53,782 nt of DNA from Bacteroidota bacterium (GCA_021818875.1 JAKASW010000001.1:1-53782), one strand, 5' to 3'; positions 23,812-40,834 are shown, numbered from the stretch's first letter. Program-made: numbers and translations. The notes: a model not told the origin generated them from the letters alone.

Positions 23812-24358
23812 TGAGAGCTCAAAAAGAGTGGTAATTAATTCGCGGCACTGATTATCCTTCCGACTAACGCGTGGAAATGTCCTGCAGGAGCATGGATGCC
23901 TTGAGAAAGGGCGAAGCCATGAGACCGTTTTGGCGATTCAGACATCCTGCTTCCCATCTTATCTGAGAACATGTTGAGTTGGGCGCCGGCTGCAAGCGAG
24001 GCCGCGCCACGGATGCAATTTTGTTCTTGACATTTAGAATCAGTTCTATTAACATTGAAACGGTTCAGATAAATATGAACCGAAAGGCATTAGGGTGCCG
24101 GTTGTGAATGCAGGGAGCCGGACGGTTTTCGCGATCACGATACAGTTGCTCTTTAAGAAAGCAATCGTATGCAGATGCCAGATTCTGCAAGAGCGAATTT
24201 CCGCAATAGTCGTGCATTGACTCCCTTACCAAGTTGGGACTGAAAAGTCTCCTTCCCCTATAGTACCACAAGCTCCAATCGTCATTATCGAGTATTGATG
24301 AGCCGGGGCAACCTTCGGTTGCGCCGCGGCGTAAAGCATTTTGACCTGGGAACTTGAT

Positions 24359-26677
24359 ATGATTTATAATCTTCCTGCGGCTGAGACATTAGAGTCAGAA
24401 AAGATTCCTCGTTACAGGGACCAGCGGTTTTCTCCGGAGGAGCGGGCCGGCGATCTTCTCGGTCGAATGACTATCGAAGAGAAGGTGGCACAGATGCTCT
24501 GCATCTGGGGGCAGAAAAAACTAATGCTCTTTGATCGAGACGGGGAACTGAGTTCGGAGAAGATGAGGAGTCTTCTTAAAGATGGAATCGGACAGATAGG
24601 AAGACTCAGCGACTCGTGTGGTGGATTGGGGCCGCTTGAGATGGCGAATCTGGCAAACGAGATCCAAAAATTCTTCGTCGAGCAGACGCGCCTCGGAATA
24701 CCGGTTGTGTTTCATGAAGAGTGTCTGCACGGGTTGGTCGCGAAGCACGCAACAAGCTATCCTCAGCCGATAGGACTTGCGTCCACGTTTGATCCGGAGA
24801 TTGTCGAAAAGATATACTCCTCGATTGCGGAGGATGCACGGAGCCGCGGAGTCCATCAGGCTCTTACACCGGTACTGGATGTGGCGCGCGAGCCAAGATG
24901 GGGAAGAGTAGAGGAGACTTTCGGTGAGGACCCCTATCTCATTTCGAGGATGGGGATCGCTGCCGTGGAGGGATTCCAGGGCAACGGGGATTTCAAAGAC
25001 AAGAAGCATATAATGGCGACGCTCAAGCATTTTGCTGCACACGGACAGCCGGAATCGGGATCTAACTGCGGGCCTGTGAATGTCTCTGAGAGGTTGTTGC
25101 GTGATGTTTTTCTTTTTCCGTTCCAGGAAGTGATCGGGAGGTGTAGGCCGCAAAGTGTAATGGCATCATATAATGAGATTGACGGAGTTCCCTCACATGC
25201 GAACAAGTGGCTTCTCAGGGATGTCCTGAGAAGAGAGTGGGGCTTTGATGGTACAGTAGTATCCGACTACTACGCGATTACCGAACTCGACACGAGGGAA
25301 GAGACGCACGGTCACAGGGTCGCAAACGACAAGAACGAAGCAGCGGCCCTCGCGGTGAACTCAGGAGTAAATGTTGAGCTGCCGGATCCCGATTGCTATC
25401 CAGGGGTCGCCGATCTCGTGCGCGACGGGGTGCTTGACGAGAAAGTGGTTGATGATTTAGTCGCTGTGGTATTAAGGCAGAAATTTGAATTTGGCTTGTT
25501 CGAAGATCCCTATGTCGATCCGGGGTTAACTCAGAATGAAGCGAGGCTGGAGGAAGAGCGGAAGCTGGCGCTTCAGGCCGCACATGAAACCATTACGCTT
25601 CTGAGAAATGAGCAAAATTTGCTTCCTCTACAGATACAGAAAGGTGATACCATAGCGGTGATAGGACCGAATGCCGACAGAAGGCTGCTCGGTGGCTACA
25701 GCGGTCAACCCAGGTATTATACCACGGTGCTCGAAGGAATAAAGGAAAAGGCGGGTCGTCTCATTAATGTCAAGTACAGCGAGGGCTGCAAAATAACTGT
25801 CGGAGGAAGCTGGAACGATGATGCAGTCACATTTCCTGATCCGGACGAGGACAGGAAGTCGATTCGCGACGCTGTCGAGATATCACAAGACTCCGATGTT
25901 GTTGTTCTTGTCCTTGGAGGCAACGAACAAACGTCGCGGGAAGCCTGGAGCAAAATCCATCTTGGAGACAGGACGAGCCTGGATCTGTTTGGACGGCAGA
26001 AGGAGCTTGCGGAGGCAATCTTGTCAGTAGGGAAGCCGGTTGTTCTGGTCCTCTTCAACGGACGACCTGTATCGATCAGCTCGATCAATTCCCGCATGAA
26101 CGCGATACTGGAATGCTGGTATCTTGGACAAGAGACCGGCCGGGCGATTGCGGACGTCCTTTTCGGGGATTACAACCCGGGTGGCAAATTACCGATATCG
26201 ATTCCCCGTTCAGTCGGACACATACCGAGCTTTTACAATTACAAGCCCTCCGCTCGCCGTGGATTCCTCGACGACCAAATTAGTCCCCTGTACCAGTTTG
26301 GATACGGGTTGAGCTATACCTCGTTCGAGTTTCGTAACCTCACACTGTCGAAGACTAAAATTAACAGAGACGAGCCGACAAGTATCTCAATCGATCTGAA
26401 AAATACCGGGAACAGAGCGGGATCAGAAGTGGTACAGATGTACATTCACGATGTATCGAGCTCGGTAACCCGTCCGGTCAAAGAGCTGAAGGGTTTCGAG
26501 AGAGTGTGGCTAGATCCGGGCGATAGCAGAACGGTTACGCTGGCCATTCTGCCCGAGCACCTGGCATTTACGAACATCGAACGCAAGCACGTAGTCGAAC
26601 CGGGGGACTTCGAGATCATGGTTGGCAGCTCTTCGAGAGATGAGGATCTGTTGAAGACGATTCTGAGGGTTATGTAA
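24359..26677 (+). CDS. GH3 beta-glucosidase/beta-xylosidase, no signal peptide (cytoplasmic)
   Basis: From ORF 24341 (TTG); the first ATG is at 24359. GH3 motifs: EEKVAQM, GIPVVFHEECLHG, TLKHFAAHG, MASYNEIDG and GFDGTVVSDY (nucleophile Asp). A C-terminal Fn3-like domain is present (VVQMYIHD...ELKGFERV). Confidence 0.9.
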   Translation: MIYNLPAAETLESEKIPRYRDQRFSPEERAGDLLGRMTIEEKVAQMLCIWGQKKLMLFDRDGELSSEKMRSLLKDGIGQIGRLSDSCGGLGPLEMANLANEIQKFFVEQTRLGIPVVFHEECLHGLVAKHATSYPQPIGLASTFDPEIVEKIYSSIAEDARSRGVHQALTPVLDVAREPRWGRVEETFGEDPYLISRMGIAAVEGFQGNGDFKDKKHIMATLKHFAAHGQPESGSNCGPVNVSERLLRDVFLFPFQEVIGRCRPQSVMASYNEIDGVPSHANKWLLRDVLRREWGFDGTVVSDYYAITELDTREETHGHRVANDKNEAAALAVNSGVNVELPDPDCYPGVADLVRDGVLDEKVVDDLVAVVLRQKFEFGLFEDPYVDPGLTQNEARLEEERKLALQAAHETITLLRNEQNLLPLQIQKGDTIAVIGPNADRRLLGGYSGQPRYYTTVLEGIKEKAGRLINVKYSEGCKITVGGSWNDDAVTFPDPDEDRKSIRDAVEISQDSDVVVLVLGGNEQTSREAWSKIHLGDRTSLDLFGRQKELAEAILSVGKPVVLVLFNGRPVSISSINSRMNAILECWYLGQETGRAIADVLFGDYNPGGKLPISIPRSVGHIPSFYNYKPSARRGFLDDQISPLYQFGYGLSYTSFEFRNLTLSKTKINRDEPTSISIDLKNTGNRAGSEVVQMYIHDVSSSVTRPVKELKGFERVWLDPGDSRTVTLAILPEHLAFTNIERKHVVEPGDFEIMVGSSSRDEDLLKTILRVM

Positions 26678-28219
26678 ATGGAAAAAGCAGAACGGGTTGC
26701 AGTCAAGGCAAGTGCTATGGGAGGCGCAGTCTCCGGCACAACTATTACAAAACTTTCAGTCAGAGAGAAAATCGGCTACGGCTTCGGCGACGGCGCTGCA
26801 AACTTCGTCTTCCAGACGATGCTGATTTTCCAGTTAGGGTTCTACACCGACGTTTTCGGACTCGGCGCTGCCGCGGCCGGTGTTCTCCTGCTGGTTGGTC
26901 GGTTCTGGGACGCTATCTTTGATCCTCTCATAGGGGTCATGGCAGATCGGACCGAAACGAGATGGGGTAAGTTTCGCCCGTGGGTCCTGTGGTCGGCTGT
27001 GCCATTCGCTGGTCTATTCGTCCTTGCATTTACCACCCCGCATTTCGGTGGTGCGGGAAAGATAATCTACGCGTATGCCACTTATATCCTGCTGATGACG
27101 TTTTACTCAGTTAACAATACTCCTTACTCCGCTCTCAACGGAGTGATCACGGGCGATGTGAATGAAAGAACCTCGCTCTCCTCCTTCCGGTTTTTCTTCT
27201 CCATGGCGGCGGCATTTCTGGTTCAGGGATTAACGCTGCCACTTGTCAACAAATTCGGGGCAGGCAATGCCGAGAAAGGATGGACGACGACGATCGGGTT
27301 GTTCGGAATCGTTATGGTGGTTTGCTTCGTCGTCACATTCTTCAGCGTAAGGGAGCGCATCAAGCCCGATCCTAAGCAACAGTCTTCCCCGAAAAAGGAT
27401 CTGCTCGGACTCCTGAAGACCGGACCATGGATTACGATGTTTGTCGCAACCCTATTCGTCTTCATAACTCTAGCCATGTGGGGGAGCGGCTCCTTCTACT
27501 TCTTCAGTTACTATGTCGATAAGAACGCTCTCTATAATTTTCTTCAGTCCATGGGCCTTGCAAAAGGCGGCGCGGAAAGTGGTGGGATATGGCACGGATT
27601 CCTGAATACTTTCGGACTCATTGTTGCGAAAGATGGAAGCAACGTCTCTTCAGTTGGGTTCAGCCTTTTCAATATGGCCGGCATGCTGATGAATATTCTC
27701 GGAGTGCTTACATCTACAGCTCTCGCAATACGGTTCGGCAAGAAAGCAGTATTCACGGTGGGCCTTTTCTTCACCGCTGTTTTTACGGCGCTGTTCATTA
27801 CGGTGCCCGCGAACGCTATCGGATTTGCATTTCTTCTTAACATCCTCAAGTCGCTGTCGTACGGCCCGACGATTCCTCTCTTGTGGGCCATGATGGCGGA
27901 TGTGGCCGATTACTCCGAGTGGAAAACGAAAACGCGTGCGACCGGTCTCGTGTTCGCCGGGATTGTCTTCGCGTTGAAAGCAGGCCTCGGTTTGGGCGGT
28001 GCAATCTGCGGCTGGATACTGGCGGGCTACGATTACGTCCCGAATGCCGTGCAGTCAATACATGCGCTCTTCGGGATTCGAATGGCTGCCAGCGTATATC
28101 CTGCAATGACTTTCTTTGCAGGCGTGGTCGCAATTCTCTTTTACGGCATCGGCAAGAAACTCAATCTTCAGATACAAGACGAATTGGCAGAACGGAGAAA
28201 AAACTTCGAATACACATGA
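26678..28219 (+). CDS. Glycoside-pentoside-hexuronide (GPH):cation symporter family MFS transporter (XynP/YicJ-like oligosaccharide importer)
   Basis: The GPH signature is DPLIGVMADRTETRWGKFRPWVLW, and the protein is multi-spanning and hydrophobic. The ATG directly abuts the GH3 stop (TAA-ATG at 26675..26680). Confidence 0.85.
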   Translation: MEKAERVAVKASAMGGAVSGTTITKLSVREKIGYGFGDGAANFVFQTMLIFQLGFYTDVFGLGAAAAGVLLLVGRFWDAIFDPLIGVMADRTETRWGKFRPWVLWSAVPFAGLFVLAFTTPHFGGAGKIIYAYATYILLMTFYSVNNTPYSALNGVITGDVNERTSLSSFRFFFSMAAAFLVQGLTLPLVNKFGAGNAEKGWTTTIGLFGIVMVVCFVVTFFSVRERIKPDPKQQSSPKKDLLGLLKTGPWITMFVATLFVFITLAMWGSGSFYFFSYYVDKNALYNFLQSMGLAKGGAESGGIWHGFLNTFGLIVAKDGSNVSSVGFSLFNMAGMLMNILGVLTSTALAIRFGKKAVFTVGLFFTAVFTALFITVPANAIGFAFLLNILKSLSYGPTIPLLWAMMADVADYSEWKTKTRATGLVFAGIVFALKAGLGLGGAICGWILAGYDYVPNAVQSIHALFGIRMAASVYPAMTFFAGVVAILFYGIGKKLNLQIQDELAERRKNFEYT

Positions 28220-28297: not shown

Positions 28298-31200
28298 ATG
28301 TCGAGGAACGACAGCTACTTGCTGGCAAAAGGATTTACATTCCTGGTTGTCTTCTTTCTCTTTGCGGTTCAATCCGGATTTGCAGCGGGCACCGGAAGAA
28401 TGAAGGGAAGAGTTTTCGACAGGCAAACAAAAGAAGCCCTGCCGGGTGCGACTGTGCTTGTGAAAGGGACAAGCATAGGTGCGTCGACGGATTTGAACGG
28501 CAATTTCGTGATCGACAACGCCCCGGAAGGCGTGCAGACTATAGTGGTTACCTATGTCGGTTACGTAGATTCGAAGGAGGCGGTAAACATAGTCCAGGGA
28601 CAAACGATCAGCAAAGACTTTTATCTTGAGCCGACGGCGGTGCAGGGAAAGGCGGTTATCGTGACTGCCCAGGCTCAAGGTCAAATCCAGGCCATCAATC
28701 AACAACTCAGCTCCAACAAGATCGTAAACGTGGTATCTTCAGCAAAGATACAGGAGCTGCCAGATTTTAACGCGGCACAGGCGATAAGCCGACTCCCCGG
28801 TGTGTCAGTCCTGATGAGTTCCGGTGAAGCGAACAAAGTCGTTATCAGAGGCCTCGCGCCTCAATACAACGAGGTTGCGGTCAGCGGAATCACGCTCGCA
28901 TCAACCGGAAGCTCGCAGATAGGTGCCACCTCCCTCGCAGGTCTAACGTCTGGTTCGGTAACCGACGATAGAAGCGTCGATCTCACCATGGTAACTCCAT
29001 ACATGATCAAATCGATCGAAGTCTATAAAACACTGACGCCGGACATGGAGGCTAATGCCATTGGTGGATATGTGAATATGAGCTTGAGAGAAGCACCGTC
29101 AGGCTTTCACGGAGATGTACTTTGGCAGTCTGGTTATACTCAGAAGAGCAACACCTACGGCAACTATCGTGCTGTAGCATCGGTCAGCAATCGGTTCTTT
29201 GATGATCATTTGGGTGTGTATATCCTTGGGGATGCGGAACGATATGACCGCAGCGCAGATAACATGAACGCAGGCTATGTAACTGCCGGCTCAACCGTGA
29301 ACCCTAACGGCTACAGGACCGTGATAGTGAACAACGTTACCCTCAATCGGCATATTGAGACCAGGAATCGATACGGCGGCAATTTGATACTCGATTACAG
29401 GCTTCCTTCAGGCTCGATAAGATCGATCAATATGTTCAGCCGTTTGAATTCGAATTATCAGGATTATAATACGATTCTTAATTATCGCAGCGATGTCACT
29501 AACAAGAGCCTCGGCTTTCAGTATAGAGCAGGAAGCAGCAATACTGATCTTGCGGTCAATTCAGTGGAAGTTACAAACGACTTTGGATTCATGACGGCAG
29601 ATATCATCGCTGCTAATACCTATTCGAGAAATCACCTTCCCACGTCGCCTTTCTATTCGTTTTTCCAAAACGGCGCTATGAAGGGTTTTACCACCGGTGA
29701 TACTAACATCGTTCCGGAGCAGTTGACGCATCTGGTAAATTACAACGCTCCGGGTGACACGACCTTGCTGGGCTCAACAAGCCTCTTCCTTTCCGATTAC
29801 CACGAGAACGATCAGGTCTACAAAGGTGACTTTAGGATTCCACTGAATGTCGGTTCCGTAGTTTCCGGGTATTTTAAGTTTGGTGGAGAATACAGGTACA
29901 ACTTTCATGCAAATGCTCAGAGTACACCTTACATATCGATCAACCGTGGAAGTGGAACCACTGCCAACGACATAAACAGAGCGGTAGTGGATTCACTCTT
30001 GAGGTATTATCCCAATCTTCAATTCGGCATTACTAATCAATTGCTGGCGTCTAACTTCACTTCGAGCGATTCGAAGCTGCTAAATAGCTTCTTGGGCAAC
30101 AAATTCGGAAGCATATATTGGGCGGCTAATCCATCATCCCTTAATTGGATGATGAATTACATAAGCCAGAATCCTGCACTCAGGGCATATAACTCAATCG
30201 GAGGATGGTTCGACGGGCCCTATCAGAACCTGCCGAATAATTATCATTATATCGAGAGATACTATGCTGCATATCTGATGTCGGAACTGGATCTCGGCCC
30301 TGATTTCATGGTGGTTGGTGGCGCACGTTATGAAGAAGACAAAGGCATGTACTCCGCGTTCAACTTAATGGATGAGCGCAATCCTGTATCTCAAAAGTTT
30401 TTCCCTGCGACGGTTTATCCGGAGAACCATTTCTGGCTCCCCATGGTACAGGCGCGGTATGATGTTACCGAGTGGGCAGACGTCCGATATTCGTATACCC
30501 AGACACTGGCACGACCGGACTACTCCCAGCTCTCTCCCCATTTCAATGTCTCGGCCGATTCACCCCACCAGCTCTGGGCTGGAAACCCCGGTCTTAAACC
30601 GGCCCAGGCATACAACCATGATCTGGAACTCACTTTCCACAGCAACGATTTGGGCCTTTTGTCCATAGGCGGCTTCTACAAGGAGATAAAAAACTTCGCC
30701 TATGCCGCCGAGTATCAGCTTTATAGCAAGAGCGTCTACGATAAGTTTGGGATCACCGGCCTCGATTCTTTGAACTCGTTCATGTTGGGAGGCAGCCCCG
30801 CCTTAACGAGTGCCGATGCAGGTGCCACCTTAAACACTTTCATCAACAGCCGGTACATAGCTTACATTAGGGGAATCGAGACAGATTTTGAAACACGATT
30901 CTGGTATTTGCCTAACCCCTTCAATGGGATAGTATTTGGAATCAATTATACTCATATCTGGTCGAAGACGAGATATCCATATTTCAATGTAACCGGGGCA
31001 AGAGGCGTAGTAACAAACTACACCGACAGCACGCGGGCCGGTCGCTTGCTCTATCAGCCCAATGATATTTTGAATACTTACTTCGGGTATGATTTCGAAG
31101 GGTTCTCTGCACGATTGTCCTTTGTTTTCCAGGGAAACTCCGTCACGGCCGTCGGCAATTATCCCGAGCAGGATGGATTCTCCCAGGACTACTTCCGCAT

Positions 31201-31369
31201 GGATTTTTCGGCGAGACAGCTTCTCCCGTGGAAAGGACTTGAGTTGTACTTCGACAGCACTAATCTCAACGGTGAACCAAACATCTCCATCGAGAATGCA
31301 ATCAGAGGGTTTACTTCTGAACAGTACTACGGCCTAACCGCCGACTTAGGAATTAGATATACCCTGTGA
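28298..31369 (+). CDS. TonB-dependent outer-membrane receptor with N-terminal carboxypeptidase-regulatory-like domain
   Basis: The CarboxypepD_reg-like segment is GRVFDRQTKEALPGATVLVKGTSIGASTDLNGNFVIDNAPEG. The plug reads IQELPDFNAAQAISRLPGVSV...VVIRGLAPQYNEVAVSGI...IEVYKTLTPDMEANAIGGYVNM, which resembles the RGLxPxYN type seen in carbohydrate-scavenging TBDTs. It is 1023 aa and ends in an aromatic-rich beta-strand, LGIRYTL. Confidence 0.85.
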   Translation: MSRNDSYLLAKGFTFLVVFFLFAVQSGFAAGTGRMKGRVFDRQTKEALPGATVLVKGTSIGASTDLNGNFVIDNAPEGVQTIVVTYVGYVDSKEAVNIVQGQTISKDFYLEPTAVQGKAVIVTAQAQGQIQAINQQLSSNKIVNVVSSAKIQELPDFNAAQAISRLPGVSVLMSSGEANKVVIRGLAPQYNEVAVSGITLASTGSSQIGATSLAGLTSGSVTDDRSVDLTMVTPYMIKSIEVYKTLTPDMEANAIGGYVNMSLREAPSGFHGDVLWQSGYTQKSNTYGNYRAVASVSNRFFDDHLGVYILGDAERYDRSADNMNAGYVTAGSTVNPNGYRTVIVNNVTLNRHIETRNRYGGNLILDYRLPSGSIRSINMFSRLNSNYQDYNTILNYRSDVTNKSLGFQYRAGSSNTDLAVNSVEVTNDFGFMTADIIAANTYSRNHLPTSPFYSFFQNGAMKGFTTGDTNIVPEQLTHLVNYNAPGDTTLLGSTSLFLSDYHENDQVYKGDFRIPLNVGSVVSGYFKFGGEYRYNFHANAQSTPYISINRGSGTTANDINRAVVDSLLRYYPNLQFGITNQLLASNFTSSDSKLLNSFLGNKFGSIYWAANPSSLNWMMNYISQNPALRAYNSIGGWFDGPYQNLPNNYHYIERYYAAYLMSELDLGPDFMVVGGARYEEDKGMYSAFNLMDERNPVSQKFFPATVYPENHFWLPMVQARYDVTEWADVRYSYTQTLARPDYSQLSPHFNVSADSPHQLWAGNPGLKPAQAYNHDLELTFHSNDLGLLSIGGFYKEIKNFAYAAEYQLYSKSVYDKFGITGLDSLNSFMLGGSPALTSADAGATLNTFINSRYIAYIRGIETDFETRFWYLPNPFNGIVFGINYTHIWSKTRYPYFNVTGARGVVTNYTDSTRAGRLLYQPNDILNTYFGYDFEGFSARLSFVFQGNSVTAVGNYPEQDGFSQDYFRMDFSARQLLPWKGLELYFDSTNLNGEPNISIENAIRGFTSEQYYGLTADLGIRYTL

Positions 31370-31479
31370 ATGGTCAATCACCCGTGCGGGGGTCAACGAG
31401 CAGTCTTCTTGACTCTCAAAAGGCTTCAAATTGTGGACGTTTTAGTTGGATCAAGAAACCATAAATAAGGAGAAGTAAA

Positions 31480-33351
31480 ATGAGACATTTTTTGTGGTTG
31501 CTGCTTATCGCGGCAGTTATGATACCGGCGTCGCTGTCTGCCCAGACAGACACCCTGGTAGTAACCAGCGACCTGACCACCAGCACCGAAGGGAATCTCA
31601 ACAATGCGATTGGCAACATCATCCTGTCGGATTCGCTGAATCATACCAACAACTTATCGAATACCGTCTTCATGTTACAACCGAACGGCTATTACATCCT
31701 TACTGGTACGATTACGACGCCTCCGCACTCGCATCTTTACCTGTATGGCCCGACCCCCGGTGGTACGCAGGGTGAATCTTTGCCGCAGATAGCATGGAGC
31801 AGTAGCGGCGGTGTAAGTACTACTTATAGTTTCGACTGCTACGGCGATCTTACGATGAAGAATGTTTGGGTTCTATCAGCGACTTCGATCGGATCGCAGG
31901 TCGGGTCGAGCATCGTGCTTGAGGACGATTCTCTTGCAAACCTGAGCGGAAAAGGCGAGCATCTCGATATGGACGGGTGCATAATAGATTACAACAACAT
32001 CGGTAACGGCGGAGGGGCAATTGAGCCGTCTTGCAGACATTTCCGCGGAAATATCACCAATACTTATTTCCGTAATTTGACGGATTCACACTACCGTTAT
32101 TATGGCAGACCGGTATCATGGACTTACCAGAGTACAACATGGCACACCGACTCGCTCATTTTTGAGAATTGCACGATAGCGAACGTGGGATATGGTTACA
32201 TGCAGGAAGCACCCGAGTATGCTGATTATGTGTCGTTCAATCACTGCACTCTTTTCAACACCATGATGTACACGCTGGAATCTTCTTACTGGTGGAATCT
32301 CTCAGTGACAAATTGCGTGTTTGCTAACTCCTATCTGTTTGGAGACCAGCCTTCCGCAGACGGCACCAACATGGTCCCTGTCGGAGGGATGGTAAACATC
32401 GATAGCGCTGCAACGGCCGGGTTTCCTGTGCCATTCACGGATTCGTCGACTGCCCCCGTTAATCTCCAACGTCATATTCTTTTTGCTAATGACAGTTACG
32501 GATACGAGAAATGGTACATCAATTACCTGGCCAGCAACCCTGTGAACGATACCGCCGGCGCGGCTAACAAGTTCAATGTAATGCCTGCAATGAGCGCAAA
32601 GACGTACCGTTTCTTTGGCGGAATCGATTCCTCGACAGGAAAGAAACTCTGGCCGTACATAAACGCGGTCAATCTTTATCCGCTCGATACGGCTACCACC
32701 ACTAACAATAATACCTCTTACGCTTCGTACACGGGCGGTGCCGATCCCGGTTTCATTCTTCCTCCATCTAACGCCGACAGTTTAAAAGCCTTCTTGATGG
32801 GGAGATGGGCAACGGGAGCAAATGTCAGCTGGGCATACGACCCGACATCTGACGTGCAGCAGATTTGGCCGATGAATGAAGATCTGTCTTACAGCAATTC
32901 CACATTGATGACCGCCGCCATGGGAGGTCTCCCGCTTGGCGATCTCTACCACTGGTGGGGAACACTTTCTGCGACAAACTACTATACGTCATGGCAAGCA
33001 CAGTCGGCCGCTGAGCGCGAGAAAATTGCTACATGGCTGAATACGGGAAATATTACGGCAGTCAAGGAACGGGGCGGTGTAATCCCGGCCGAGTACACAC
33101 TCTCTCAGAACTATCCGAATCCGTTCAATCCCGCAACTCAGATTGAGTATTCTGTACCGAAGAACGGTTTCGTCACGCTGAAAGTGTACAACATTCTCGG
33201 GCAGGAAGTGGCAACCCTCTTCTCGGGCATCCAGCACGCGGGAAGTTACACCGCGACATTTGACGGGAGCAGACTTGCAAGCGGAGTCTATTTCTACCGC
33301 CTGCAGGCTGGCAATGTTTCAATTGCAAAGAAGTTAGTGCTGATGAAATAA
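31480..33351 (+). CDS. Secreted protein of unknown function, probable right-handed parallel beta-helix, T9SS CTD; occupies the position where SusD would be
   Basis: Strong RBS (AAGGAG 8 nt upstream) and signal peptide MRHFLWLLLIAAVMIPASLSAQ. Repeated beta-helix-like turns: MKNVWVLSA, FRGNITNTYFRNL, FENCTIANVGYG, FNHCTLFNTMMY and VTNCVFANSYLF. The tail is QNYPNPFNPATQI...VYFYRLQAGNVSIAKKLVLMK. It has no lipobox and no TPR/SusD-like features. Confidence 0.6.
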   Translation: MRHFLWLLLIAAVMIPASLSAQTDTLVVTSDLTTSTEGNLNNAIGNIILSDSLNHTNNLSNTVFMLQPNGYYILTGTITTPPHSHLYLYGPTPGGTQGESLPQIAWSSSGGVSTTYSFDCYGDLTMKNVWVLSATSIGSQVGSSIVLEDDSLANLSGKGEHLDMDGCIIDYNNIGNGGGAIEPSCRHFRGNITNTYFRNLTDSHYRYYGRPVSWTYQSTTWHTDSLIFENCTIANVGYGYMQEAPEYADYVSFNHCTLFNTMMYTLESSYWWNLSVTNCVFANSYLFGDQPSADGTNMVPVGGMVNIDSAATAGFPVPFTDSSTAPVNLQRHILFANDSYGYEKWYINYLASNPVNDTAGAANKFNVMPAMSAKTYRFFGGIDSSTGKKLWPYINAVNLYPLDTATTTNNNTSYASYTGGADPGFILPPSNADSLKAFLMGRWATGANVSWAYDPTSDVQQIWPMNEDLSYSNSTLMTAAMGGLPLGDLYHWWGTLSATNYYTSWQAQSAAEREKIATWLNTGNITAVKERGGVIPAEYTLSQNYPNPFNPATQIEYSVPKNGFVTLKVYNILGQEVATLFSGIQHAGSYTATFDGSRLASGVYFYRLQAGNVSIAKKLVLMK

Positions 33352-33595
33352 ATCTTGAGTAACGGAGCGAGGTCATGGCTGCGCGCCGAAACTCACGTTG
33401 ATGAATTCCCGGCGTGAAGGCACTTGAACCTCGCCTGTTGTACCATCAAAGGAGGTGGTTGAGTTCATTATATGTAAGTCCGCTCAGGGTTCTGCTTTGT
33501 AGTTAAAACCTATGAAATAGTTAACGGAGTTTTTTCCTGGTTCATTCCAGTCTATACAGTAATTGCTCCGATTAACAAAAATCTTTGGAGGAATC

Positions 33596-36500
33596 ATGAA
33601 AACTTTTTTACGCTCACTCACGGCCGGAGTTTTCCTGCTCCTGCTGGGATTGAGTGCATCGATGGCACAGGAAGTGACGTATTCTCCAGGCCCGGCAATA
33701 ACCCCGTCGTCAGGTGCGGCAAACGGCGGCTTTGCATGGGCGGATGTGAATAAGGATGGTAATCTGGATGTCTTTATTCCGTCCAATAATATGATCTACA
33801 ACAGCACCACCTCATTTGCTCAGGATGCATCTGCCACTGTAAATATTTCGCTCAACACCAATTCAGTCGGGCTTTTGTTAGCCGATTTCAATGGTGATGG
33901 TGTCCCTGATTTGTTTACAACTAATGGCGGGACTCCTTCGTCAGGCTTGTTCTATAATCAAAACGGAGTATTTATTCCTCCAACCGGGACCGGTGATCTT
34001 GGGACGGCGGGAGTCACCGGCGAAGTATTCGAAGGCGCCGCGGCGGCACCGATCGATCACAGCAATTACCTTAGCATCTGCTGGCCCGGAACCTTTACAG
34101 GCATCGCAGGCAACGCGTCGGCGGCGGGCGGCGGAGGTATGTGGCTGCTTAAAGGAGGCCCGAACGGCTTTACTAACATAGGTAGGCGAGCAGGTGGAGG
34201 AGCATCCTCCTCAAACCTTACCATGGATTTTGAAAGCCAAAACGTTGGGTATGCCTTTCCGACTATCGGTTGGTCTGCGACGGACATTCAATCCACAGTT
34301 GCTTTGGATCCCACTGGTGGGACGAACCACGTTCTGAAAAATGTAGTACATAACTACAATGCAGCCCCAGTGCTCGAATTTACTTTGCCTTCTGGCAAGA
34401 CGCTGGCTGATTATACTTCGTTCATGTTCAAAGGTGACTGGGCCCAAGGAGATGTGGGTTATAAGAATATTGTCGTTGAGGCTTATCAGTCGATGCCGAC
34501 AGCTCAGGCATTTAATAATTCTGCCAATCAAATTGGCTCATGGAATCGCGCTGCTATGGGCTCCAACGGTTGGGAAATTGACACCGTTAACATTACCAAT
34601 ACCAGGAGCTACAGCGGGACTGTATTTATTGCCTTCGGAATAAACTGTGCAGGCACGGGCAACGTTGGGGCTGCCGGAGATACCACTATCTGGTATGCCG
34701 ACGATATCACTCTCGTATCCCCGACCGGAGGATCGATCTCCAGTGCTGCCATAGATACTTCGCTTTCGTTTGAATCCTGGGATGTGCGCTTCCTGGATGC
34801 GAATAATGACGGCTACCAGGATTTGTTGATGCCGAGTTTCCGATGTGGGTTTGCCAGAATTGACACCGGTTCGTCGGGTGCAAGAAAAGGAACCGTCCTG
34901 TTCTTGAACGATGGGACGGGCAAATTCATAATACCGACCGCAGCATCCCTCGGGCGCCCTATCTATTCGATTGGGGCAGGAGGTGCGGTGAGCACGACCG
35001 GAGATACGGGTATTGTCGTCGACGACACTGTGCGTCACTTCACCGCCATCGGCAGTCAGTGGGGGGATCTCAACAACGATGGTATCCCTGATCTATTCCT
35101 TAACGCGCTTGGTGGAACCGACAACCTCGACGGCAATGGGAATTACGTTGCCGATGTTATTCTTTATGGAAAGGGAGACGGTACCTTTACCTACAAGTGG
35201 GACGGAGTGCACGTCGTTGCCAACAATGGGATCGTGCAGGCTACTAACCAGCGCGGGATCGACATTGGAGACTACAACAATGACGGACTGGCGGATATAT
35301 ACACGAGCGGGACCTTTGGAGCCCAACACTTGTACAGAAACAACGGTGATGGTACATTCACTGATGTTGCGGTCCAGGACGGTATAACGGCAGGCGGGCA
35401 GCGAGCCGGACAATTCGTTGATTACAATGGCGACGGCTTCCTCGACATATTCATGTATACCGGTGGCACTTCTGTCATGCAGAAAAACGCCGGCAATAGC
35501 AACCATTGGATTGGGTTTATTCCAATCGGGACAGGCCATAATATGTCGGCAATTGGAGCTAAGTTCACCGTCTGGGTCGGAGGGAAGCAGCAGGCCCGCT
35601 GGATCAAGGCAGAAGGTGGTTCCGGAGGTATGGGTGGCGAAGTAAGAGCAAACTTCGGTCTAGGTGCCAGCACAAAGATCGACAGCGTGAATGTCCAGTG
35701 GCCCGATGGTACCAGTCATACGTATAGCTTTGGCGCGGCGAACAATCTAATCGCGGTTAACAAATACTATACGATCCAGGAAGGATCGGTCATACCATCG
35801 ACACCGACGATCAAAAGGCCATCGTGGGCAGCTGGCGACGTAGCTCTCTCCTCCACTGATACTTTGACATGGAACGCTGCTACGACGGGAGCGGGTACAA
35901 CTACTTACCAGGTCCAGATTGCTTCGAATGCTTCGTTCTCAAGTATAGCGAAGGCCGTAAAGGGAATAACCGGCACGAGCGCGATAGTGCGCCTCGGACT
36001 TTCCACAAAGTACTACTGGCGCGTGCAGGCCTTCAATAATCAGCTTTCTGGCCCATATTCGGCAATCGATAGCTTCCAGACCAACGTTACGCCGTGCACA
36101 ACAGCGCCGACGCAATTGAAACCAGTGAACAATTCGACAACTGCGCCCAACAAGCCTACGTTGGTGGTCAGCTACGTTCCTACCGCTTCAACGTACCATT
36201 TCCAACTTTCAGATACTGTAGCCATGACCAGGTTTATTGTGAATGATTCGTTGAGTGATTTCGATACGACTTGGGTGGTCACACAGTCTCTGACACCTAG
36301 CAAACAGTACTACTGGCGTGTTCGAGGCTACAATCCGGCCGGGTCATCAAGCTGGTCTCAGGTAGACTCATTTACTATAATGTATTTGCCTGCAACTCCG
36401 ACTCTGGCCTATCCGTCCAGCAACCAGGCAAACGTACCGGTTAATCCACTTACACTGAAGTGGAAGCATGAAGCCGGCGACAGCAACTATGTAGTAAAGC

Positions 36501-37291
36501 TGTGGACTTACTCTACCGGCGGGCAGACACTTATGGTGGACACCACGAGCCACGATACATCGTGGACGGTTACATCAGGCCTGACTAACCGCGTTTACTA
36601 CTACTGGCAGGTACAGTGCTACAACCAGGGCGGAGCGAGTGCATTCAGCGCTGTCGACTCGTTCACAAGCGTCATCGAAGTTGCTGCAGCGCCGATCGCA
36701 GTTTCGCCGAAGGGTGTTGCGGTCGCTCAGCCGAGGCAGACAGTCTTCGCATGGAATCCTGCAGTCAATGCACAGTGGTACCATCTGCAAATCGCTACGG
36801 CGAGCGACTTCTCGGGTGATGTGGTTGTCGACCAGACGATGATATCTGACACGTCAGTGCAGATAGCCGACACACTGGCACCAACTACGACTTACTATTA
36901 TCGCCTGAGCTCGATCAACCTGGGCGGTGAGGGCGCATTCTCAAGTCCAACCGTGTTCAAGACAGGATCTGGTGTGACCGGGATCTTCGGTGTGCCGGGT
37001 ACCCTTCCAAAGGAGTTTGCACTCCACCAGAACTACCCGAATCCGTTCAACCCTTCGACGACGATCAGCTATGATCTGCCGAAGGCCGCATTTGTAGAAG
37101 TCGTGATCTACGATGTTCTCGGACGGCAGGTCGCAAGGTTGGTGGATGGGATACAACAGCCCAGCACGCAAACTGTGGTCTGGAACCCTGAAGGCTTAAG
37201 CAGTGGCGTTTATTTCTGCCGCATCTCGGCACGAAGCATGGATGGGTCCAAGAACTTCAATGCTGTAAAGAAACTAATGTACATGAAATAA
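33596..37291 (+). CDS. Giant FG-GAP/VCBS-repeat + ASPIC/UnbV (CRTAC1-like) protein with CBM-like insertion, four Fn3-like modules and T9SS CTD
   Basis: From ORF 33563; the likely start is ATG 33596 (GGAGG RBS), giving signal peptide MKTFLRSLTAGVFLLLLGLSASMAQ. FG-GAP/VCBS repeats: DVNKDGNLDVF, DFNGDGVPDLF, DANNDGYQDLL, DLNNDGIPDLF, DYNNDGLADIY and DYNGDGFLDIF. The ASPIC/UnbV block is NHWIGFIPIGTGHNMSAIGAKFTVWVGGKQQARWIKAEGGSGGMGG...VNVQWPDGTSHTY. Four xYYWRVxxxN modules follow, then a CTD tail. Confidence 0.75.
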   Translation: MKTFLRSLTAGVFLLLLGLSASMAQEVTYSPGPAITPSSGAANGGFAWADVNKDGNLDVFIPSNNMIYNSTTSFAQDASATVNISLNTNSVGLLLADFNGDGVPDLFTTNGGTPSSGLFYNQNGVFIPPTGTGDLGTAGVTGEVFEGAAAAPIDHSNYLSICWPGTFTGIAGNASAAGGGGMWLLKGGPNGFTNIGRRAGGGASSSNLTMDFESQNVGYAFPTIGWSATDIQSTVALDPTGGTNHVLKNVVHNYNAAPVLEFTLPSGKTLADYTSFMFKGDWAQGDVGYKNIVVEAYQSMPTAQAFNNSANQIGSWNRAAMGSNGWEIDTVNITNTRSYSGTVFIAFGINCAGTGNVGAAGDTTIWYADDITLVSPTGGSISSAAIDTSLSFESWDVRFLDANNDGYQDLLMPSFRCGFARIDTGSSGARKGTVLFLNDGTGKFIIPTAASLGRPIYSIGAGGAVSTTGDTGIVVDDTVRHFTAIGSQWGDLNNDGIPDLFLNALGGTDNLDGNGNYVADVILYGKGDGTFTYKWDGVHVVANNGIVQATNQRGIDIGDYNNDGLADIYTSGTFGAQHLYRNNGDGTFTDVAVQDGITAGGQRAGQFVDYNGDGFLDIFMYTGGTSVMQKNAGNSNHWIGFIPIGTGHNMSAIGAKFTVWVGGKQQARWIKAEGGSGGMGGEVRANFGLGASTKIDSVNVQWPDGTSHTYSFGAANNLIAVNKYYTIQEGSVIPSTPTIKRPSWAAGDVALSSTDTLTWNAATTGAGTTTYQVQIASNASFSSIAKAVKGITGTSAIVRLGLSTKYYWRVQAFNNQLSGPYSAIDSFQTNVTPCTTAPTQLKPVNNSTTAPNKPTLVVSYVPTASTYHFQLSDTVAMTRFIVNDSLSDFDTTWVVTQSLTPSKQYYWRVRGYNPAGSSSWSQVDSFTIMYLPATPTLAYPSSNQANVPVNPLTLKWKHEAGDSNYVVKLWTYSTGGQTLMVDTTSHDTSWTVTSGLTNRVYYYWQVQCYNQGGASAFSAVDSFTSVIEVAAAPIAVSPKGVAVAQPRQTVFAWNPAVNAQWYHLQIATASDFSGDVVVDQTMISDTSVQIADTLAPTTTYYYRLSSINLGGEGAFSSPTVFKTGSGVTGIFGVPGTLPKEFALHQNYPNPFNPSTTISYDLPKAAFVEVVIYDVLGRQVARLVDGIQQPSTQTVVWNPEGLSSGVYFCRISARSMDGSKNFNAVKKLMYMK

Positions 37292-37414: not shown

Positions 37415-38974
37415 ATGAGAATTAAAATAATCCATACTCTGCTTCTACTGAGCTTTTGTCTCTGCAGTGTTTCACTAGCACAAAACTTTCCCCTTGTCTA
37501 TGATGTCGAAAACACAGGCGAAAACTGTCTGCAACCTCAGTTTCCTTCTCTCACCCAATTGCCGGTCAACAAGTCATTGCCCGATCCGTTCATGTGGGCT
37601 GACAGTGCGCTCGGACGTATCAAATATTACTCGGATTGGCAGGCACGGCGCGCCGAGATAGGTTATCAGATCCAACATTATGAGATCGGAGTAAAGCCAC
37701 CTCGGCCGGATACGATTTCTGCCAGCTATTCTCAAGACACACTGGTTGTCAATGTTACTGTGAATGGTAGCACTCTTACCATGAGGTCGCATATTACTCT
37801 ACCGTCAGGCACCGGCCCATTCCCGGCAGTGATCGGTATTATGACGCCTACCGGAAGTATCCCCGATAGCATTTTCAGCAATCGCCATATTGCAGAAATT
37901 ACGTATAACATCAATCAGGTAACCACTTACTACAACTTCCAATATACTGATCCATATTTCAGGCTTTACCCTAATCTTAATACAACCAACATCGGACAGT
38001 ACAGCGCATGGGCATGGGGAGTAAGCAGAATAATCGACGGGTTGGAACTGGTACAGGACTCGCTTCCCATCGACTTAAAGCACATAGCAGTTACCGGATG
38101 CTCCTACGCAGGCAAGTTGGCACTATTTGCTGGAGCGTTTGACGAACGCATTGCGCTAACAATTGCCCAGGAGTCGGGCGGCGGCGGTGCAACTTCGTGG
38201 CGTTACTCACATGCCACGGCCGGTACCGGCGTAGAGGAGATAGACAACACGAGTTATGATTGGTTTGCAGATTCGTTGAAGCAATTTGCCGGAGACGAAG
38301 TTTATCGACTGCCGTATGATCACCATGAATTGATGGCGATGGTGGCGCCGCGTGCTTTGTATGTCACCGCGAATCCCGATTATACTTGGCTGTCGAATCC
38401 CTCGTGTCACGTTGCGAGTATCGCTGCCCAGAGAGTTTATGAAGGTCTCCAGATACCGGATAGGTTCGGCTATTCAATTGTTGGTGGACATTCGCATTGT
38501 CAGCTTCCGGATGTCCAGGTGCCTGATATCCAGGCATTTGTTGAGAAGTTTCTTCTCGGTGACTCGACCCAATATACGTATCTTGGAACCAGTCCGTATA
38601 ATATCGACCTTACTCCATGGATTGTGTTGAAGAATCCTAAGCTTGCGGATACGACCACCACGTCCATAGGTGACAGACCCGGAAGTGTGATCAGCGGATT
38701 TAGACTTGAACAAAACTGTCCCAACCCCTTTAATCCGACGACGACGATCAGGTATGGTCTGTCCAAAAAATCCTACGTCCAGCTTTTCATCTACGATGTT
38801 CTTGGACGGCAGGTAGCGAAGCTGGTTGATGGTATTCAACACCCCAGCGAGCAGAGCGTTTCATGGGACGCGTCAGGCTTTAGCAGCGGTGTTTACTTCT
38901 GCCGGATTATTGCTCGCAGTCTCGATGGGTCGACAGATTTCAATGCTGTAAAAAAACTCCTGTACATGAAATAG
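37415..38974 (+). CDS. CE15 glucuronoyl esterase (second copy) with T9SS CTD
   Basis: It is collinear with 237..2372: LVYDVENTGEN, LPVNKSLPDPFMWAD, VTGCSYAGKLALFAGAFDERIALTIAQESGGGG and GGHSHCQLPD. It lacks Fn3 modules. The CTD is QNCPNPFNPTTTI...VYFCRIIARSLDGSTDFNAVKKLLYMK. Confidence 0.88.
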   Translation: MRIKIIHTLLLLSFCLCSVSLAQNFPLVYDVENTGENCLQPQFPSLTQLPVNKSLPDPFMWADSALGRIKYYSDWQARRAEIGYQIQHYEIGVKPPRPDTISASYSQDTLVVNVTVNGSTLTMRSHITLPSGTGPFPAVIGIMTPTGSIPDSIFSNRHIAEITYNINQVTTYYNFQYTDPYFRLYPNLNTTNIGQYSAWAWGVSRIIDGLELVQDSLPIDLKHIAVTGCSYAGKLALFAGAFDERIALTIAQESGGGGATSWRYSHATAGTGVEEIDNTSYDWFADSLKQFAGDEVYRLPYDHHELMAMVAPRALYVTANPDYTWLSNPSCHVASIAAQRVYEGLQIPDRFGYSIVGGHSHCQLPDVQVPDIQAFVEKFLLGDSTQYTYLGTSPYNIDLTPWIVLKNPKLADTTTTSIGDRPGSVISGFRLEQNCPNPFNPTTTIRYGLSKKSYVQLFIYDVLGRQVAKLVDGIQHPSEQSVSWDASGFSSGVYFCRIIARSLDGSTDFNAVKKLLYMK

Positions 38975-38995
38975 TTGTCACTTCTCCTTCTTGGT

Positions 38996-39040
38996 GCATC
39001 CCGATTTGGCATTTGGCCGACTCGGGATGCTTCTTCTTCC
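38996..39040 (+). terminator. Rho-independent terminator-like hairpin
   Basis: A perfect 9-bp stem pairs GCATCCCGA (38996..39004) with TCGGGATGC (39022..39030). It is followed by the T-rich TTCTTCTTCC. Confidence 0.6.
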
Positions 39041-39205
39041 CACGAATTCCTATGAGAGTGAGATCCATCTGTAACTTGAAGATTCTTTTACAACTCGTCA
39101 CTCAAAGAGATGGCGAACCGGATGCAAATGACAAGGCATCCATCGAATACGCCGCGAGCCACGATGCGCGTACCGCGAGTGTGCTTTACGACTAAGGAGA
39201 CTACC

Positions 39206-40813
39206 GTGACACCCGGATCATTGAAGTTTCAAGGACAACAGACCGTGGCGATTCGTCTAATGCTTTTTGCAGTGCTTCTCGTCCCTTCAGAATCTTTTTG
39301 CCAATTAGCACTCGGTAGAAGCAAATTCCTTGGGAACGCAGTTACCTGGGGCTATCGCATACCGTCGAGCTATCCTGCATATTGGAATCAGGTCACTCCT
39401 GGAAATGACGGGAAATGGGGGAGCGTCGAAAACAACCGGGGTGTCTTCAACTGGACGGGGCTCGACGATCTGTACAACTTCGCGGTGACAAACGGTATTC
39501 CATTTAAGGATCACAATCTGATCTGGGGTCAGCAGCAGCCGAGCTGGATTTCTACTCTTGATTCAGCCAGTCAGAGAGCGGCAATCAAAGCGTGGATCGA
39601 TTCCGTAGGACACCGGTATCCGCAGATGGATTTTATCGACGTCGTCAACGAGCCTCTGCATGCTCCACCTGACGGTAGAAACGGGACTGCGAACTACATT
39701 CGCGCACTCGGTGGATCCGGAGCGACAGGTTGGGATTGGATCGTCACTGTCTTCACATGGGCAAGACATGCCTGCGCACCGGGAGTAAAGCTTCTTATCA
39801 ACGACTACAACATCCTGCATGACAATGGAGTTACGAACACTTATATCGCCCTCATCGATACTTTGAAGGTCAGGGGACTGATCGATGGAATCGGGATCCA
39901 GGGACACTATTTTGAATTCAAGAGTGCTGCGGGTTTGTCCCCTGTCTATTCTTATCCGGTGAGCACCCTGAAATCCAATCTTGATAGACTGGCCTCGGCC
40001 ACAGGATTGCCAATCTATATTTCTGAGTTTGAAATAGACGAAGCCAAGGACAGCACCCAATTGGTGAATTACAAGACGTACTTTTCTCTTTTCTGGGAAG
40101 ACCCTGCAGTGAAGGGCATGACGTTGTGGGGTTACATCCAGGGCGATACGTGGAAAGCAAACGGTTACCTGCTTCGTACAGACGGGACCGAACGACCGGC
40201 ACTTCAATGGCTGCGTACCTATCTCGCCAAGTACTTGCTCCAGCCCGTAGTGGTTTCGCCGGCCGGCACAACAGGCAGTCCGCGCAATCCTGTTCTCCTA
40301 TGGCATTCCTCAATTGCTGCATCGTCCTACCACTTGCAGGTTGGGACTGACGAATTGGTCTCGACAGTAGTCCTAGACTCCACCGTGTCGGATACCCTGC
40401 TGCAACTACCGAGTTTAAGTGCGAACACGCGATACTACTGGCACGTTGCTGCATTGAACCCCAGCGACACCGGCGACTTTTCTGCTCCCGTGAGTTTTAC
40501 TACCGGGGATTCGATTGCTGCGGATGTAAATGAGCACGAAGAAATGCCTGCAGAATTTAGGCTATGGCAGAATTATCCGAATCCATTCAATCCAATGAGT
40601 AATATCGAATTTCAAATTCCGAATACCGGATTTGTGTCGTTGAAAGTATATGATGCATTGGGTAGGGAAGTAAAGACGTTGGTAAATGGATCTGAACAGG
40701 CGGGAAGTCATCAAGTCACATTCGACGCGACCGCGTTTCCGAGCGGGGTCTATTTCTATCGGCTCAGCACTGGAAACATGACTGCCATAATGAAGATGAT
40801 TGTACTCAAGTAA
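39206..40813 (+). CDS. GH10 endo-1,4-beta-xylanase (third copy) with Fn3-like module and T9SS CTD
   Basis: From ORF 39110. The best start is GTG 39206, 5 nt after TAAGGAGA, which gives a hydrophobic signal ...AIRLMLFAVLLVPSESFCQ. GH10 motifs: FLGNAV, YWNQVTPGNDGKWG, VVNEPLH and YISEFEI. The Fn3-like module contains NTRYYWHVAALN. The tail is QNYPNPFNPMSNI...VYFYRLSTG...MKMIVLK. Confidence 0.88.
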   Translation: MTPGSLKFQGQQTVAIRLMLFAVLLVPSESFCQLALGRSKFLGNAVTWGYRIPSSYPAYWNQVTPGNDGKWGSVENNRGVFNWTGLDDLYNFAVTNGIPFKDHNLIWGQQQPSWISTLDSASQRAAIKAWIDSVGHRYPQMDFIDVVNEPLHAPPDGRNGTANYIRALGGSGATGWDWIVTVFTWARHACAPGVKLLINDYNILHDNGVTNTYIALIDTLKVRGLIDGIGIQGHYFEFKSAAGLSPVYSYPVSTLKSNLDRLASATGLPIYISEFEIDEAKDSTQLVNYKTYFSLFWEDPAVKGMTLWGYIQGDTWKANGYLLRTDGTERPALQWLRTYLAKYLLQPVVVSPAGTTGSPRNPVLLWHSSIAASSYHLQVGTDELVSTVVLDSTVSDTLLQLPSLSANTRYYWHVAALNPSDTGDFSAPVSFTTGDSIAADVNEHEEMPAEFRLWQNYPNPFNPMSNIEFQIPNTGFVSLKVYDALGREVKTLVNGSEQAGSHQVTFDATAFPSGVYFYRLSTGNMTAIMKMIVLK

Positions 40814-40834
40814 TCGTTCTCCTACTTGGTTCAT

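Follow-up and report, generated by a model that had tools for sequence, protein, structure and literature searches.

What serves a TonB-dependent transporter (TBDT) of a glycan locus at the cell surface when the gene after it is not susD? The question is raised by a 53.8-kb stretch of a Bacteroidota bacterium (GCA_021818875.1, JAKASW010000001.1:1-53782; 53,782 nt), which we call the window. It is one long plus-strand gene array, annotated here with Pfam and NCBIfam, in which a TBDT gene is followed by a gene for a 623-aa beta-helix protein that ends in a type IX secretion system (T9SS) sorting domain. We find that the two genes are kept side by side in related genomes, in loci for different glycans, and that no SusD turns up in the window or among neighbouring gene products of related loci. 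Judging from gene order and domain content, we give about even odds (a probability near 0.5) to the 623-aa protein being an extracellular accessory partner of the adjoining TBDT, i.e., a functional counterpart of SusD and of surface glycan-binding proteins. A preliminary description of this DNA had proposed an alternative glycan-capture architecture built on a SusC-type transporter and directed at xylan; the syntenic pairing, which proves independent of substrate, and the lack of SusD stand, while the SusC-type transporter and the xylan specificity do not.

Anatomy of the pair

Both genes lie on the plus strand, 110 nt apart, as first described. The region divides as follows.

28298 to 31369, plus strand: TBDT, 1023 aa, with signal peptide, CarboxypepD_reg N-terminal domain, plug and TIGR01782-type barrel
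31370 to 31479, plus strand: intergenic gap of 110 nt, with an AAGGAG ribosome-binding site before the ATG
31480 to 33351, plus strand: T9SS-sorted beta-helix protein, 623 aa, founding member of the family
31480 to 31542, plus strand: type-I signal peptide, aa 1-21, ending in SLSA before Q (read from the sequence, no predictor)
31543 to 32502, plus strand: right-handed parallel beta-helix, aa 22-341, with Asn/Cys ladders (model secondary structure and Foldseek)
32503 to 33057, plus strand: C-terminal helical/irregular subdomain, aa 342-526 (AlphaFold model)
32860 to 32961, plus strand: motif WPxNEDLSYxNxTLxTAxxGGxPLGDLYxWW, aa 461-494 (superfamily conservation)
33097 to 33348, plus strand: type-A T9SS C-terminal sorting domain, aa 540-623

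Judged by its profile matches, the transporter is a hybrid of a SusC-like N-terminal extension and the barrel type of Xanthomonas and Caulobacter carbohydrate loci. Pfam places CarbopepD_reg_2 (PF13715) at aa 36-122 (E 5e-22), the plug at aa 138-257 and the barrel at aa 489-990. The SusC/RagA model TIGR04056 gives 60.6 bits where its cutoff is 368.25, and its match is limited to aa 35-242, which takes in the N-terminal domain and only the beginning of the plug; TIGR01782 (TonB-Xanth-Caul) scores 308.0 bits over aa 119-1022, 2 bits short of its cutoff of 310. The TIGR04056 score is far enough below the cutoff to rule out membership in SusC/RagA, and so of the SusC-type receptor first described, the N-terminal domain holds and the barrel does not. 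The same architecture recurs in partner TBDTs from other loci: all eight tested join a CarboxypepD_reg N-terminal domain to a TIGR01782 barrel, six of the eight exceed the curated TIGR01782 cutoff (314-377 bits), and none of the eight is a SusC (TIGR04056 scores of 54-109 bits). The TIGR04056 and TIGR01782 scores point to a separate TBDT lineage with its own partner, and not to a SusC minus its SusD. A PDB sequence search with the TBDT alone gave no match. Neither the 110-nt gap nor either flanking gap holds a terminator-like hairpin, which, together with the ribosome-binding site, is consistent with likely co-transcription of the TBDT and beta-helix genes.

The 623-aa protein starts with MRHFLWLLLIAAVMIPASLSA, followed after the predicted cleavage site by QTDT; there is no cysteine in aa 1-35, hence no lipobox. 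The Gln directly after the predicted signal-peptidase-I site (Gln22; site at 31540-31548, aa 21-23) is kept in at least 80% of the superfamily, and a Gln also follows the cleavage site in the FG-GAP protein encoded next (A, then QEV) and in other secreted window proteins. This resembles the Bacteroidetes "Q-rule," which, according to PMC5837995, is not valid for the whole FCB group. Downstream of the signal peptide come the beta-helix repeat turns, such as ITNTYFRN, FENCTIAN, FNHCTLFN and VTNCVFAN. No Pfam or NCBIfam model matches the roughly 520 residues between the signal peptide and the sorting domain, and the sorting domain is the only part of the protein that either collection recognizes (PF18962 Por_Secre_tail at aa 545-620, with 43.9 bits where 27 is the cutoff; TIGR04183, 46.9 bits against 23); no known catalytic family appears.

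The AlphaFold model, built on 56 homologues, is confident (pLDDT 88.2, pTM 0.80). Along aa 23-341, pairs of strands recur at intervals of about 25 residues; aa 344-522 form a helical/irregular subdomain, aa 527-533 a flexible linker and aa 540-621 an Ig-like C-terminal domain. Sequence, profile matches and model thus agree with the type-I signal peptide, NCT/NIT beta-helix turns and Por/T9SS C-terminal domain of the preliminary description. In distant members, profile matches cover the beta-helix and the C-terminal subdomain as one unit. Foldseek searches of the PDB with the full model return top matches that all fall on the sorting domain, including the T9SS substrate domains 8glk_D and 8gl6_D, and they are therefore uninformative on the body of the protein; the full model also has weak matches to phage "pectate lyase superfamily" proteins. 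When the structure was re-predicted without the sorting domain, from a shortened alignment of 14 sequences (pLDDT 56.6), the helix half alone was usable. This low-confidence half matched right-handed beta-helix carbohydrate-active proteins exclusively, at no more than 15% identity: the best was the PL6 alginate lyase 7dmk (E 8e-4), then CE8 pectin methylesterase, PL3 pectate lyase and WceF. Because the truncated model is poor, we take these matches as an indication of fold class only.

Could the protein be a divergent SusD? We scanned it together with 55 homologues (56 sequences) against Pfam at E values up to 1, and the SusD models (PF07980, PF12741, PF12771, PF14322) matched none of the 56. 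The position of its gene, directly downstream of a TBDT, is a trait of SusD/RagB; with no SusD Pfam match, no lipobox and a model that is not all-alpha and TPR-like, a SusD/RagB identity is ruled out, as first thought. Neither SusD nor SusC/RagA genes are found among window open reading frames (ORFs) of at least 200 aa, and no SusD is found by Pfam among 30 neighbouring gene products of related loci, beside the orthologous TBDTs. The Beta_helix model PF13229 matches 29 of the 56 sequences (best E 2e-6), the 623-aa protein itself not being one of them. Membership in DUF5123 (6/56, best E 0.23) and DUF4957 (2/56, best E 0.039) was considered and rejected, these matches being sub-threshold and confined to homologues. 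Among the same 56 sequences, there is no Pfam match to the known beta-helix CAZyme families (PL1/3/6/9, GH28, CE8, GH120, GH141), and a family-profile search of all PDB sequences returned only a sorting domain and chance matches to maspin.

Conservation of the pair across loci and substrates

Is the adjacency of the two genes a peculiarity of this genome? A scan of one genome per GTDB species yielded 225 relatives; counts out of 78 refer to the best 78 loci of these, which come from metagenome-assembled genomes (MAGs) labelled Kryptoniota, Ignavibacteriota/-ae, Melioribacteraceae, KSB1 or "Bacteroidota," with ORFs labelled by BLASTP against the window proteins. In 73 of the 78 loci, the gene directly upstream of the beta-helix gene, on the same strand, encodes a TBDT, at a median gap of 53 nt. 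In the other five, the exception goes back to contig edges, to frameshifts, to a small ORF that is spurious, or to a second paralogue. Some loci showed a second apparent match to the beta-helix protein; these matches were mostly to the sorting domain alone, so we re-screened all locus ORFs with a superfamily hidden Markov model (HMM) built without that domain. In the re-screen, a family member is the next gene after 70 of 72 full-length TBDTs, and a TBDT precedes 76 family members in the locus set. The 70 include secondary TBDTs of two loci (L056 and L060) that are 31-32% identical to the window TBDT and were not used in picking the loci.

The two proteins also diverge together. Identity to the window proteins correlates strongly between TBDT and partner (r = 0.95, n = 65), at r = 0.83 between the TBDT and the product of the third gene, and at r = 0.43 between the TBDT and the inner-membrane symporter of the glycoside-pentoside-hexuronide (GPH) family. 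These values mean that inheritance and duplication involve the TBDT, the partner and the third gene as one unit, and that the inner-membrane transporter is exchangeable. A GPH symporter gene lies directly upstream of the TBDT in 30 related loci; in other loci one finds there a gene for a xylose-isomerase-like protein, a LacI regulator, an FGGY kinase or a GH67. The third gene of the cassette, which the preliminary description had missed, is the following.

33563 to 37291, plus strand: FG-GAP / UnbV_ASPIC beta-propeller protein with Ig, fn3 and T9SS sorting domain (Pfam)

Such an FG-GAP/UnbV_ASPIC T9SS protein is encoded directly after the beta-helix gene in 55 of the 78 loci. About 12 other loci have a different T9SS protein at the third position, 842-1299 aa long, whose only Pfam domain is the sorting domain. 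These alternative proteins (L031 12075-15212, L038 11967-15116, L052, L055, L068, L070, L072-L074, L078-L080) are 39-53% identical to one another and form another uncharacterised family tied to the cassette. In a Rhodothermaceae locus (L090), an FG-GAP/ASPIC-related gene lies on the opposite strand.

How far does the pairing reach beyond close relatives and beyond xylan? We looked up the genomic context of 10 divergent members of the family (about 25-32% identity). Nine of the 10 lie directly after a TBDT with CarboxypepD_reg, Plug and barrel domains, and the divergent pairs come from Ignavibacteria, Kryptoniota, KSB1, Rhodothermia and one Paludibacter MAG. Within the locus set, L060 gives a further case: 122 nt beyond its second TBDT, which is 31% identical to that of the window, lies a frameshifted paralogue that shares 32% identity with the 623-aa protein, with homology covering the helix, the C-terminal subdomain and the sorting domain. 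The surroundings of the divergent pairs are varied.

L082 and L084: pair, then Rotamase_2 and GDSL/TPR genes, with a GH9 close by
L085: locus of mannan type, containing GH2 and GH26
L086: classical mannan locus with GH130, epimerase, GH5 and SSF transporter; the partner carries a CBM35
L087: xylan locus of a second kind, containing GH10-CBM4_9, GH43 and GH115
L088: GH106, LacI, nucleoside hydrolase and kinase
L089: Paludibacter MAG, with ECF sigma, FecR, TBDT and partner
L090: Rhodothermaceae, with LacI, TBDT and partner
L091: Ser/Thr kinase-TonB_C, TBDT and partner

The TBDT/beta-helix pairing is thus general and not xylan-specific. The preliminary description had tied the pair to xylan, which the mannan and other loci contradict; its expectation that the two genes would remain neighbours in relatives is borne out in the 78 loci, the 72 TBDTs and the divergent members alike. 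The L088 pair (7001-14376) lies between two GH106 genes, in the company of a sugar transporter, a PfkB kinase, an inosine/uridine nucleoside hydrolase and a T9SS protein with DUF362; its substrate may be something other than a plant polysaccharide. In several long-read MAG assemblies, frameshifts break up the TBDT or partner gene, leaving two to four ORFs (L060 19887-21657, L082 6720-9851, L085 3796-6868, L086 7001-9575); these look like assembly errors and not pseudogenes.

The N-terminal 512 aa of the protein recover more than 260 proteins of about 600 aa each, either unnamed or annotated "T9SS type A sorting domain-containing protein." A domain-profile search of 1.84 billion representatives finds 635 clusters at E ≤1e-3, 351 at 1e-10 and 101 at 1e-30, clusters being counted at 50% identity. 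Beyond its sorting domain, the family is without a model or a name, and our literature searches found no functional study or description of the family or of the TBDT/beta-helix pair. Of 93 full-length representatives, nearly all carry a type-I signal peptide, lack a lipobox and end in a sorting domain of the form SGVYFYRL...KKMxLxK; a lipobox-like motif occurs in one of the 93.

Conservation within the protein differs by region. Aromatic and charged residues abound in the loops at aa 196-225, 237-250 and 262-273, whose conservation is confined to the xylan subfamily, where the inter-coil loops YFRNxTDxHYRYYGR, WHTD, GYxYMQE and LESxYWW are nearly invariant. An alignment of the superfamily (68 sequences, 21-73% identity) keeps the Asn ladders, glycines and prolines and does not keep the helix loops. 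The best-conserved stretch of that alignment outside the sorting domain is the aa 461-494 motif, which belongs to the C-terminal subdomain and precedes the sorting-domain linker by a few dozen residues, and it is kept in the 32%-identical L060 paralogue as well. This motif is a candidate surface for a function common to the superfamily, e.g., contact with the TBDT. Variable helix loops together with a constant element near the anchor would fit a substrate-specific binder that docks on a conserved partner.

Partner, enzyme or adhesin

If the 623-aa protein does serve the transporter, uptake might proceed as follows. The protein would cross the inner membrane via Sec, with cleavage of the type-I signal peptide, and then the outer membrane via the T9SS by means of its type-A C-terminal domain, with the sorting domain removed afterwards; it would probably be kept at the cell surface. 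Variable loops along one side of the beta-helix would bind the glycan of the locus, in this case xylan or xylo-oligosaccharides released by the GH10, GH30, GH43 and CE15 enzymes, and the conserved C-terminal subdomain, next to the anchor point, would hold the protein at the transporter. Oligosaccharides would be handed to the TonB-powered barrel and trimmed in the periplasm, the GPH symporter would move them into the cytoplasm, and GH3 would cleave them there. The FG-GAP/ASPIC propeller is probably a second surface component. The presence of canonical endo-enzymes in these loci (predicted T9SS-sorted endo-xylanases here, GH26 or GH5 in mannan loci) supports a role for the beta-helix protein as partner.

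It is tempting to extend this to a whole class of systems. In that case, a TBDT lineage combining CarboxypepD_reg with a TIGR01782 barrel would have arrived at an independent, second "lid" solution, with a dedicated beta-helix partner delivered by the T9SS, covalently anchored via its processed C-terminus, docking by the WP...LSY...GDLxW subdomain and presenting glycans on substrate-specific helix loops, in Ignavibacteria, Kryptoniota, KSB1, Rhodothermia and some Bacteroidia. We put this forward tentatively, at somewhat less than even odds.

Several observations weigh against a role as partner. Type-A T9SS cargos in other bacteria are in many cases released and not anchored, and we know of no lid for the Proteobacterial TBDTs of the TIGR01782 type, which work without one. 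The HMM re-screen found four orphan family members among enzyme genes without an adjacent TBDT, and L083, the exception among the 10 divergent members, follows a GH127 gene. The members without a TBDT (L005 18530-20119, L026 10537-13560, L037 13873-15048, L047 10515-12353, L083 10001-11776) sit among GH10, GH30 and GH127 genes, some being a second copy beside a TBDT-linked copy in the same locus. Family members of one class, about 840 aa long, have a CBM35-like module ahead of the sorting domain, a feature more typical of enzymes, and the beta-helix fold is common to many polysaccharide lyases, esterases and hydrolases. Finally, invariant residues of the xylan-subfamily loops (D202, H204, R198, R210, H222, D224, E243, E267) form a candidate active site. 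Members lying among GH genes, the CBM35-like module and the invariant Asp, His, Arg and Glu all favour a different explanation, as do the fold matches to PL6, CE8, PL3, WceF and phage pectate-lyase-superfamily proteins and a 1736-aa member fused behind a Sortilin/BNR (GH74-like) region: the family may consist of new surface or secreted beta-helix carbohydrate-active enzymes (lyases, esterases or hydrolases) that cut or de-decorate the polymer for import by the TBDT, in which case adjacency would reflect co-expression only and docking on the transporter would be optional. We regard this as a serious alternative, though less likely than the partner role. The same family follows the same type of TBDT in loci for chemically unrelated glycans that have their canonical endo-enzymes, no acidic/basic constellation in the helix loops is kept across the superfamily, and the sequences have no CAZyme match in Pfam and none to a PDB chain; the fold matches, for their part, are weak (E 8e-4 or worse, at most 15% identity) and come from a low-confidence, truncated model.

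T9SS-sorted beta-helix proteins are common adhesins, and the FG-GAP/ASPIC neighbour is integrin-like, so the protein might instead be a T9SS-secreted adhesin or part of a surface layer, by which cells attach to plant particles, regulated together with the uptake genes and with no direct role in transport. Neither its fixed place after one TBDT type across about 90 loci of several classes nor its co-divergence with the TBDT at r = 0.95 would be expected of such a protein, and we consider it improbable. That the pairing is an artefact of locus collection or gene calling, with no functional meaning, is more improbable still: similarity to the beta-helix protein was the basis for picking the loci, which means that close relatives have ancestry in common, and several metagenome assemblies contain frameshifts, but the pairing holds at 25-32% identity, across phylum-level lineages and locus types, and for secondary TBDTs that played no part in retrieval, which already contradicts this explanation.

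How would a partner of this kind compare with known ones? As in SusC/SusD (RagA/RagB), a TBDT gene is followed by the gene for an accessory protein, here predicted to be at the surface, within CAZyme loci; the pair is duplicated and diversified with substrate, and the TBDT carries a CarboxypepD_reg N-terminal domain. In contrast to SusC/SusD, the barrel is not TIGR04056 and the partner is a beta-helix, not a TPR-like helical protein. Unlike SusD, it is not a lipoprotein, its predicted export is by the T9SS and not by the surface-lipoprotein route, and it has no sequence or fold relation to SusD. A TBDT with a dedicated surface partner is thus a known kind of system, and what appears to be new is a beta-helix family paired with a TIGR01782-type TBDT.

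Non-SusD lids of non-SusC TBDTs have been described in Bacteroides, among them BtuG, XusB, DUF4876 and others (Price, Deutschbauer, Arkin, bioRxiv 10.1101/2023.03.17.533168). There too, a non-SusC TBDT has a conserved neighbour gene unrelated to SusD, and the case begins from adjacency. However, those lids are all lipoproteins and serve mostly in vitamin, siderophore and haem uptake, whereas the partner here combines a type-I signal peptide with a T9SS sorting domain and lies in glycan loci. For the TBDTs of CUT loci, we know of no dedicated surface partner. The CUT loci of Xanthomonas and Caulobacter (Blanvillain et al. 2007, PMC1790865) have what is probably the same barrel subfamily as our pair, and share with it the combination of a TBDT with an inner-membrane transporter and glycoside hydrolases, often with a LacI regulator; unlike our pair, CUT TBDTs are without the CarboxypepD_reg domain, and CUT enzymes use other secretion routes. 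The DUF4957/DUF5123 proteins of Bacteroides polysaccharide utilization loci are likewise beta-helix proteins of unknown role in glycan loci, and the 623-aa protein is not a member of them.

A cultured example of the family may exist in Rhodothermus marinus. Its xylan locus Rmar_1067-1081 encodes a GH43-CBM6 and the CBM4-GH10 Xyn10A, both with a C-terminal sorting domain, the TonB receptor Rmar_1070, and Rmar_1071, which the gene table lists as a hypothetical protein with a Por sorting domain (PMC6987092). The gene order is the same as in the second kind of xylan locus above (L087), and, to judge from gene order, Rmar_1071 is probably a member of the family. Unlike the window locus, that of R. 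marinus also holds a canonical SusC/SusD pair.

The surrounding xylan locus and wider meaning

The cassette is embedded in a large xylan utilisation locus that spans 96 to about 44139 of the window. Besides the genes already given, it contains the following.

96 to 23811, plus strand: locus part 5' of the cassette, with CE15, GH35/42-like, two SASA esterases, GH43, SDR, GH10 with C-terminal sorting domain, GH30-like, CE4, GH51, GH27-like, CE2, GH43 with CBM6 and C-terminal sorting domain, and GH10 (Pfam/NCBIfam)
24341 to 26677, plus strand: GH3, probable cytoplasmic beta-xylosidase (Pfam Glyco_hydro_3 / _C / Fn3-like; no signal peptide at the N-terminus)
26678 to 28219, plus strand: GPH-family glycoside:cation symporter, inner membrane (MFS_2 E 4e-91; TIGR00792 gph 360.7 bits, cutoff 231)
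37415 to 44139, plus strand: locus part 3' of the cassette, with CE15 and GH10, each with C-terminal sorting domain, GH30 (XynC-like), and a second beta-helix protein unrelated to the first (Pfam/NCBIfam)

The GPH symporter and cytoplasmic GH3 had been read correctly from the start as the genes directly upstream of the pair, and a GH3 gene lies upstream of the cassette in many related loci. Seven window proteins carry a type-A T9SS C-terminal sorting domain: the beta-helix protein, the FG-GAP/ASPIC protein and five enzymes, i.e., two CE15 glucuronoyl esterases, two GH10 and one GH43 with CBM6. They imply a working T9SS. No such domain is found on the third GH10, the two GH30-type enzymes, the other GH43, GH51, the GH27-like and GH35/42-like enzymes, the two SASA esterases, CE2, CE4, SDR or GH3.

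Other features of the window deserve mention in their own right. The GH30-like protein (12380-14323) has CarboxypepD_reg at aa 31-76 and a Por_Secre_tail/FlgD_ig-like Ig domain at aa 94-174, so that its sorting-domain-like fold is near the N-terminus and not the C-terminus; homologues of 610-717 aa occur in related loci. The second beta-helix protein (42268-44139) also has 623 aa and a signal peptide; it is PF13229/NosD-like and has no T9SS domain, and many related xylan loci keep it at 50-73% identity. It may be a xylan-active enzyme that is so far unclassified; that it is a paralogue of the T9SS-sorted protein was ruled out, the BLASTP similarity not being significant. For the CE2 esterase, the listed ORF (19175-20440) has a GTG start that overlaps the end of the GH27-like gene (17463-19289) by 115 nt, and its Pfam domains begin only at aa 94, which probably puts the real start further downstream. 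Right after the xylan locus, and unrelated to it, lies a corrinoid methyltransferase set (44303-50092) comprising a B12-binding protein, an S-methyltransferase, a Met_synt_B12 activation domain, two URO-D-like methyltransferases and an MFS transporter. A URO-D-like homologue adjoins GH3 in two related loci (L036, at 68% identity, and L019), and the set may be linked to methoxylated substrates, e.g., 4-O-methyl-glucuronate or lignin-derived aromatics.

What might the pair mean for the organisms that have it? Glycan uptake by Bacteroidota relatives that are dominant in many soils, sediments and hot springs is predicted almost wholly from susC/susD pairs. Such pairs are scarce in Ignavibacteriales CAZyme clusters and absent in Kapabacteria (PMC10576277), and with few of them in Ignavibacteria and relatives, the loci of these groups are missed or called incomplete. 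Melioribacter roseus has one canonical sus operon (PMC3534657), which indicates that both systems can co-exist. With about 635 clusters and no model or name beyond the sorting domain, the beta-helix family is a well-defined target for structural and biochemical work. If its members do act as partners of the transporter, the TBDT-partner pair would be a new genomic marker for such loci and would explain how Ignavibacteria and their relatives capture oligosaccharides. The T9SS, beyond its part in delivering enzymes, adhesins and gliding proteins, would then also be an assembly route for nutrient-uptake complexes.

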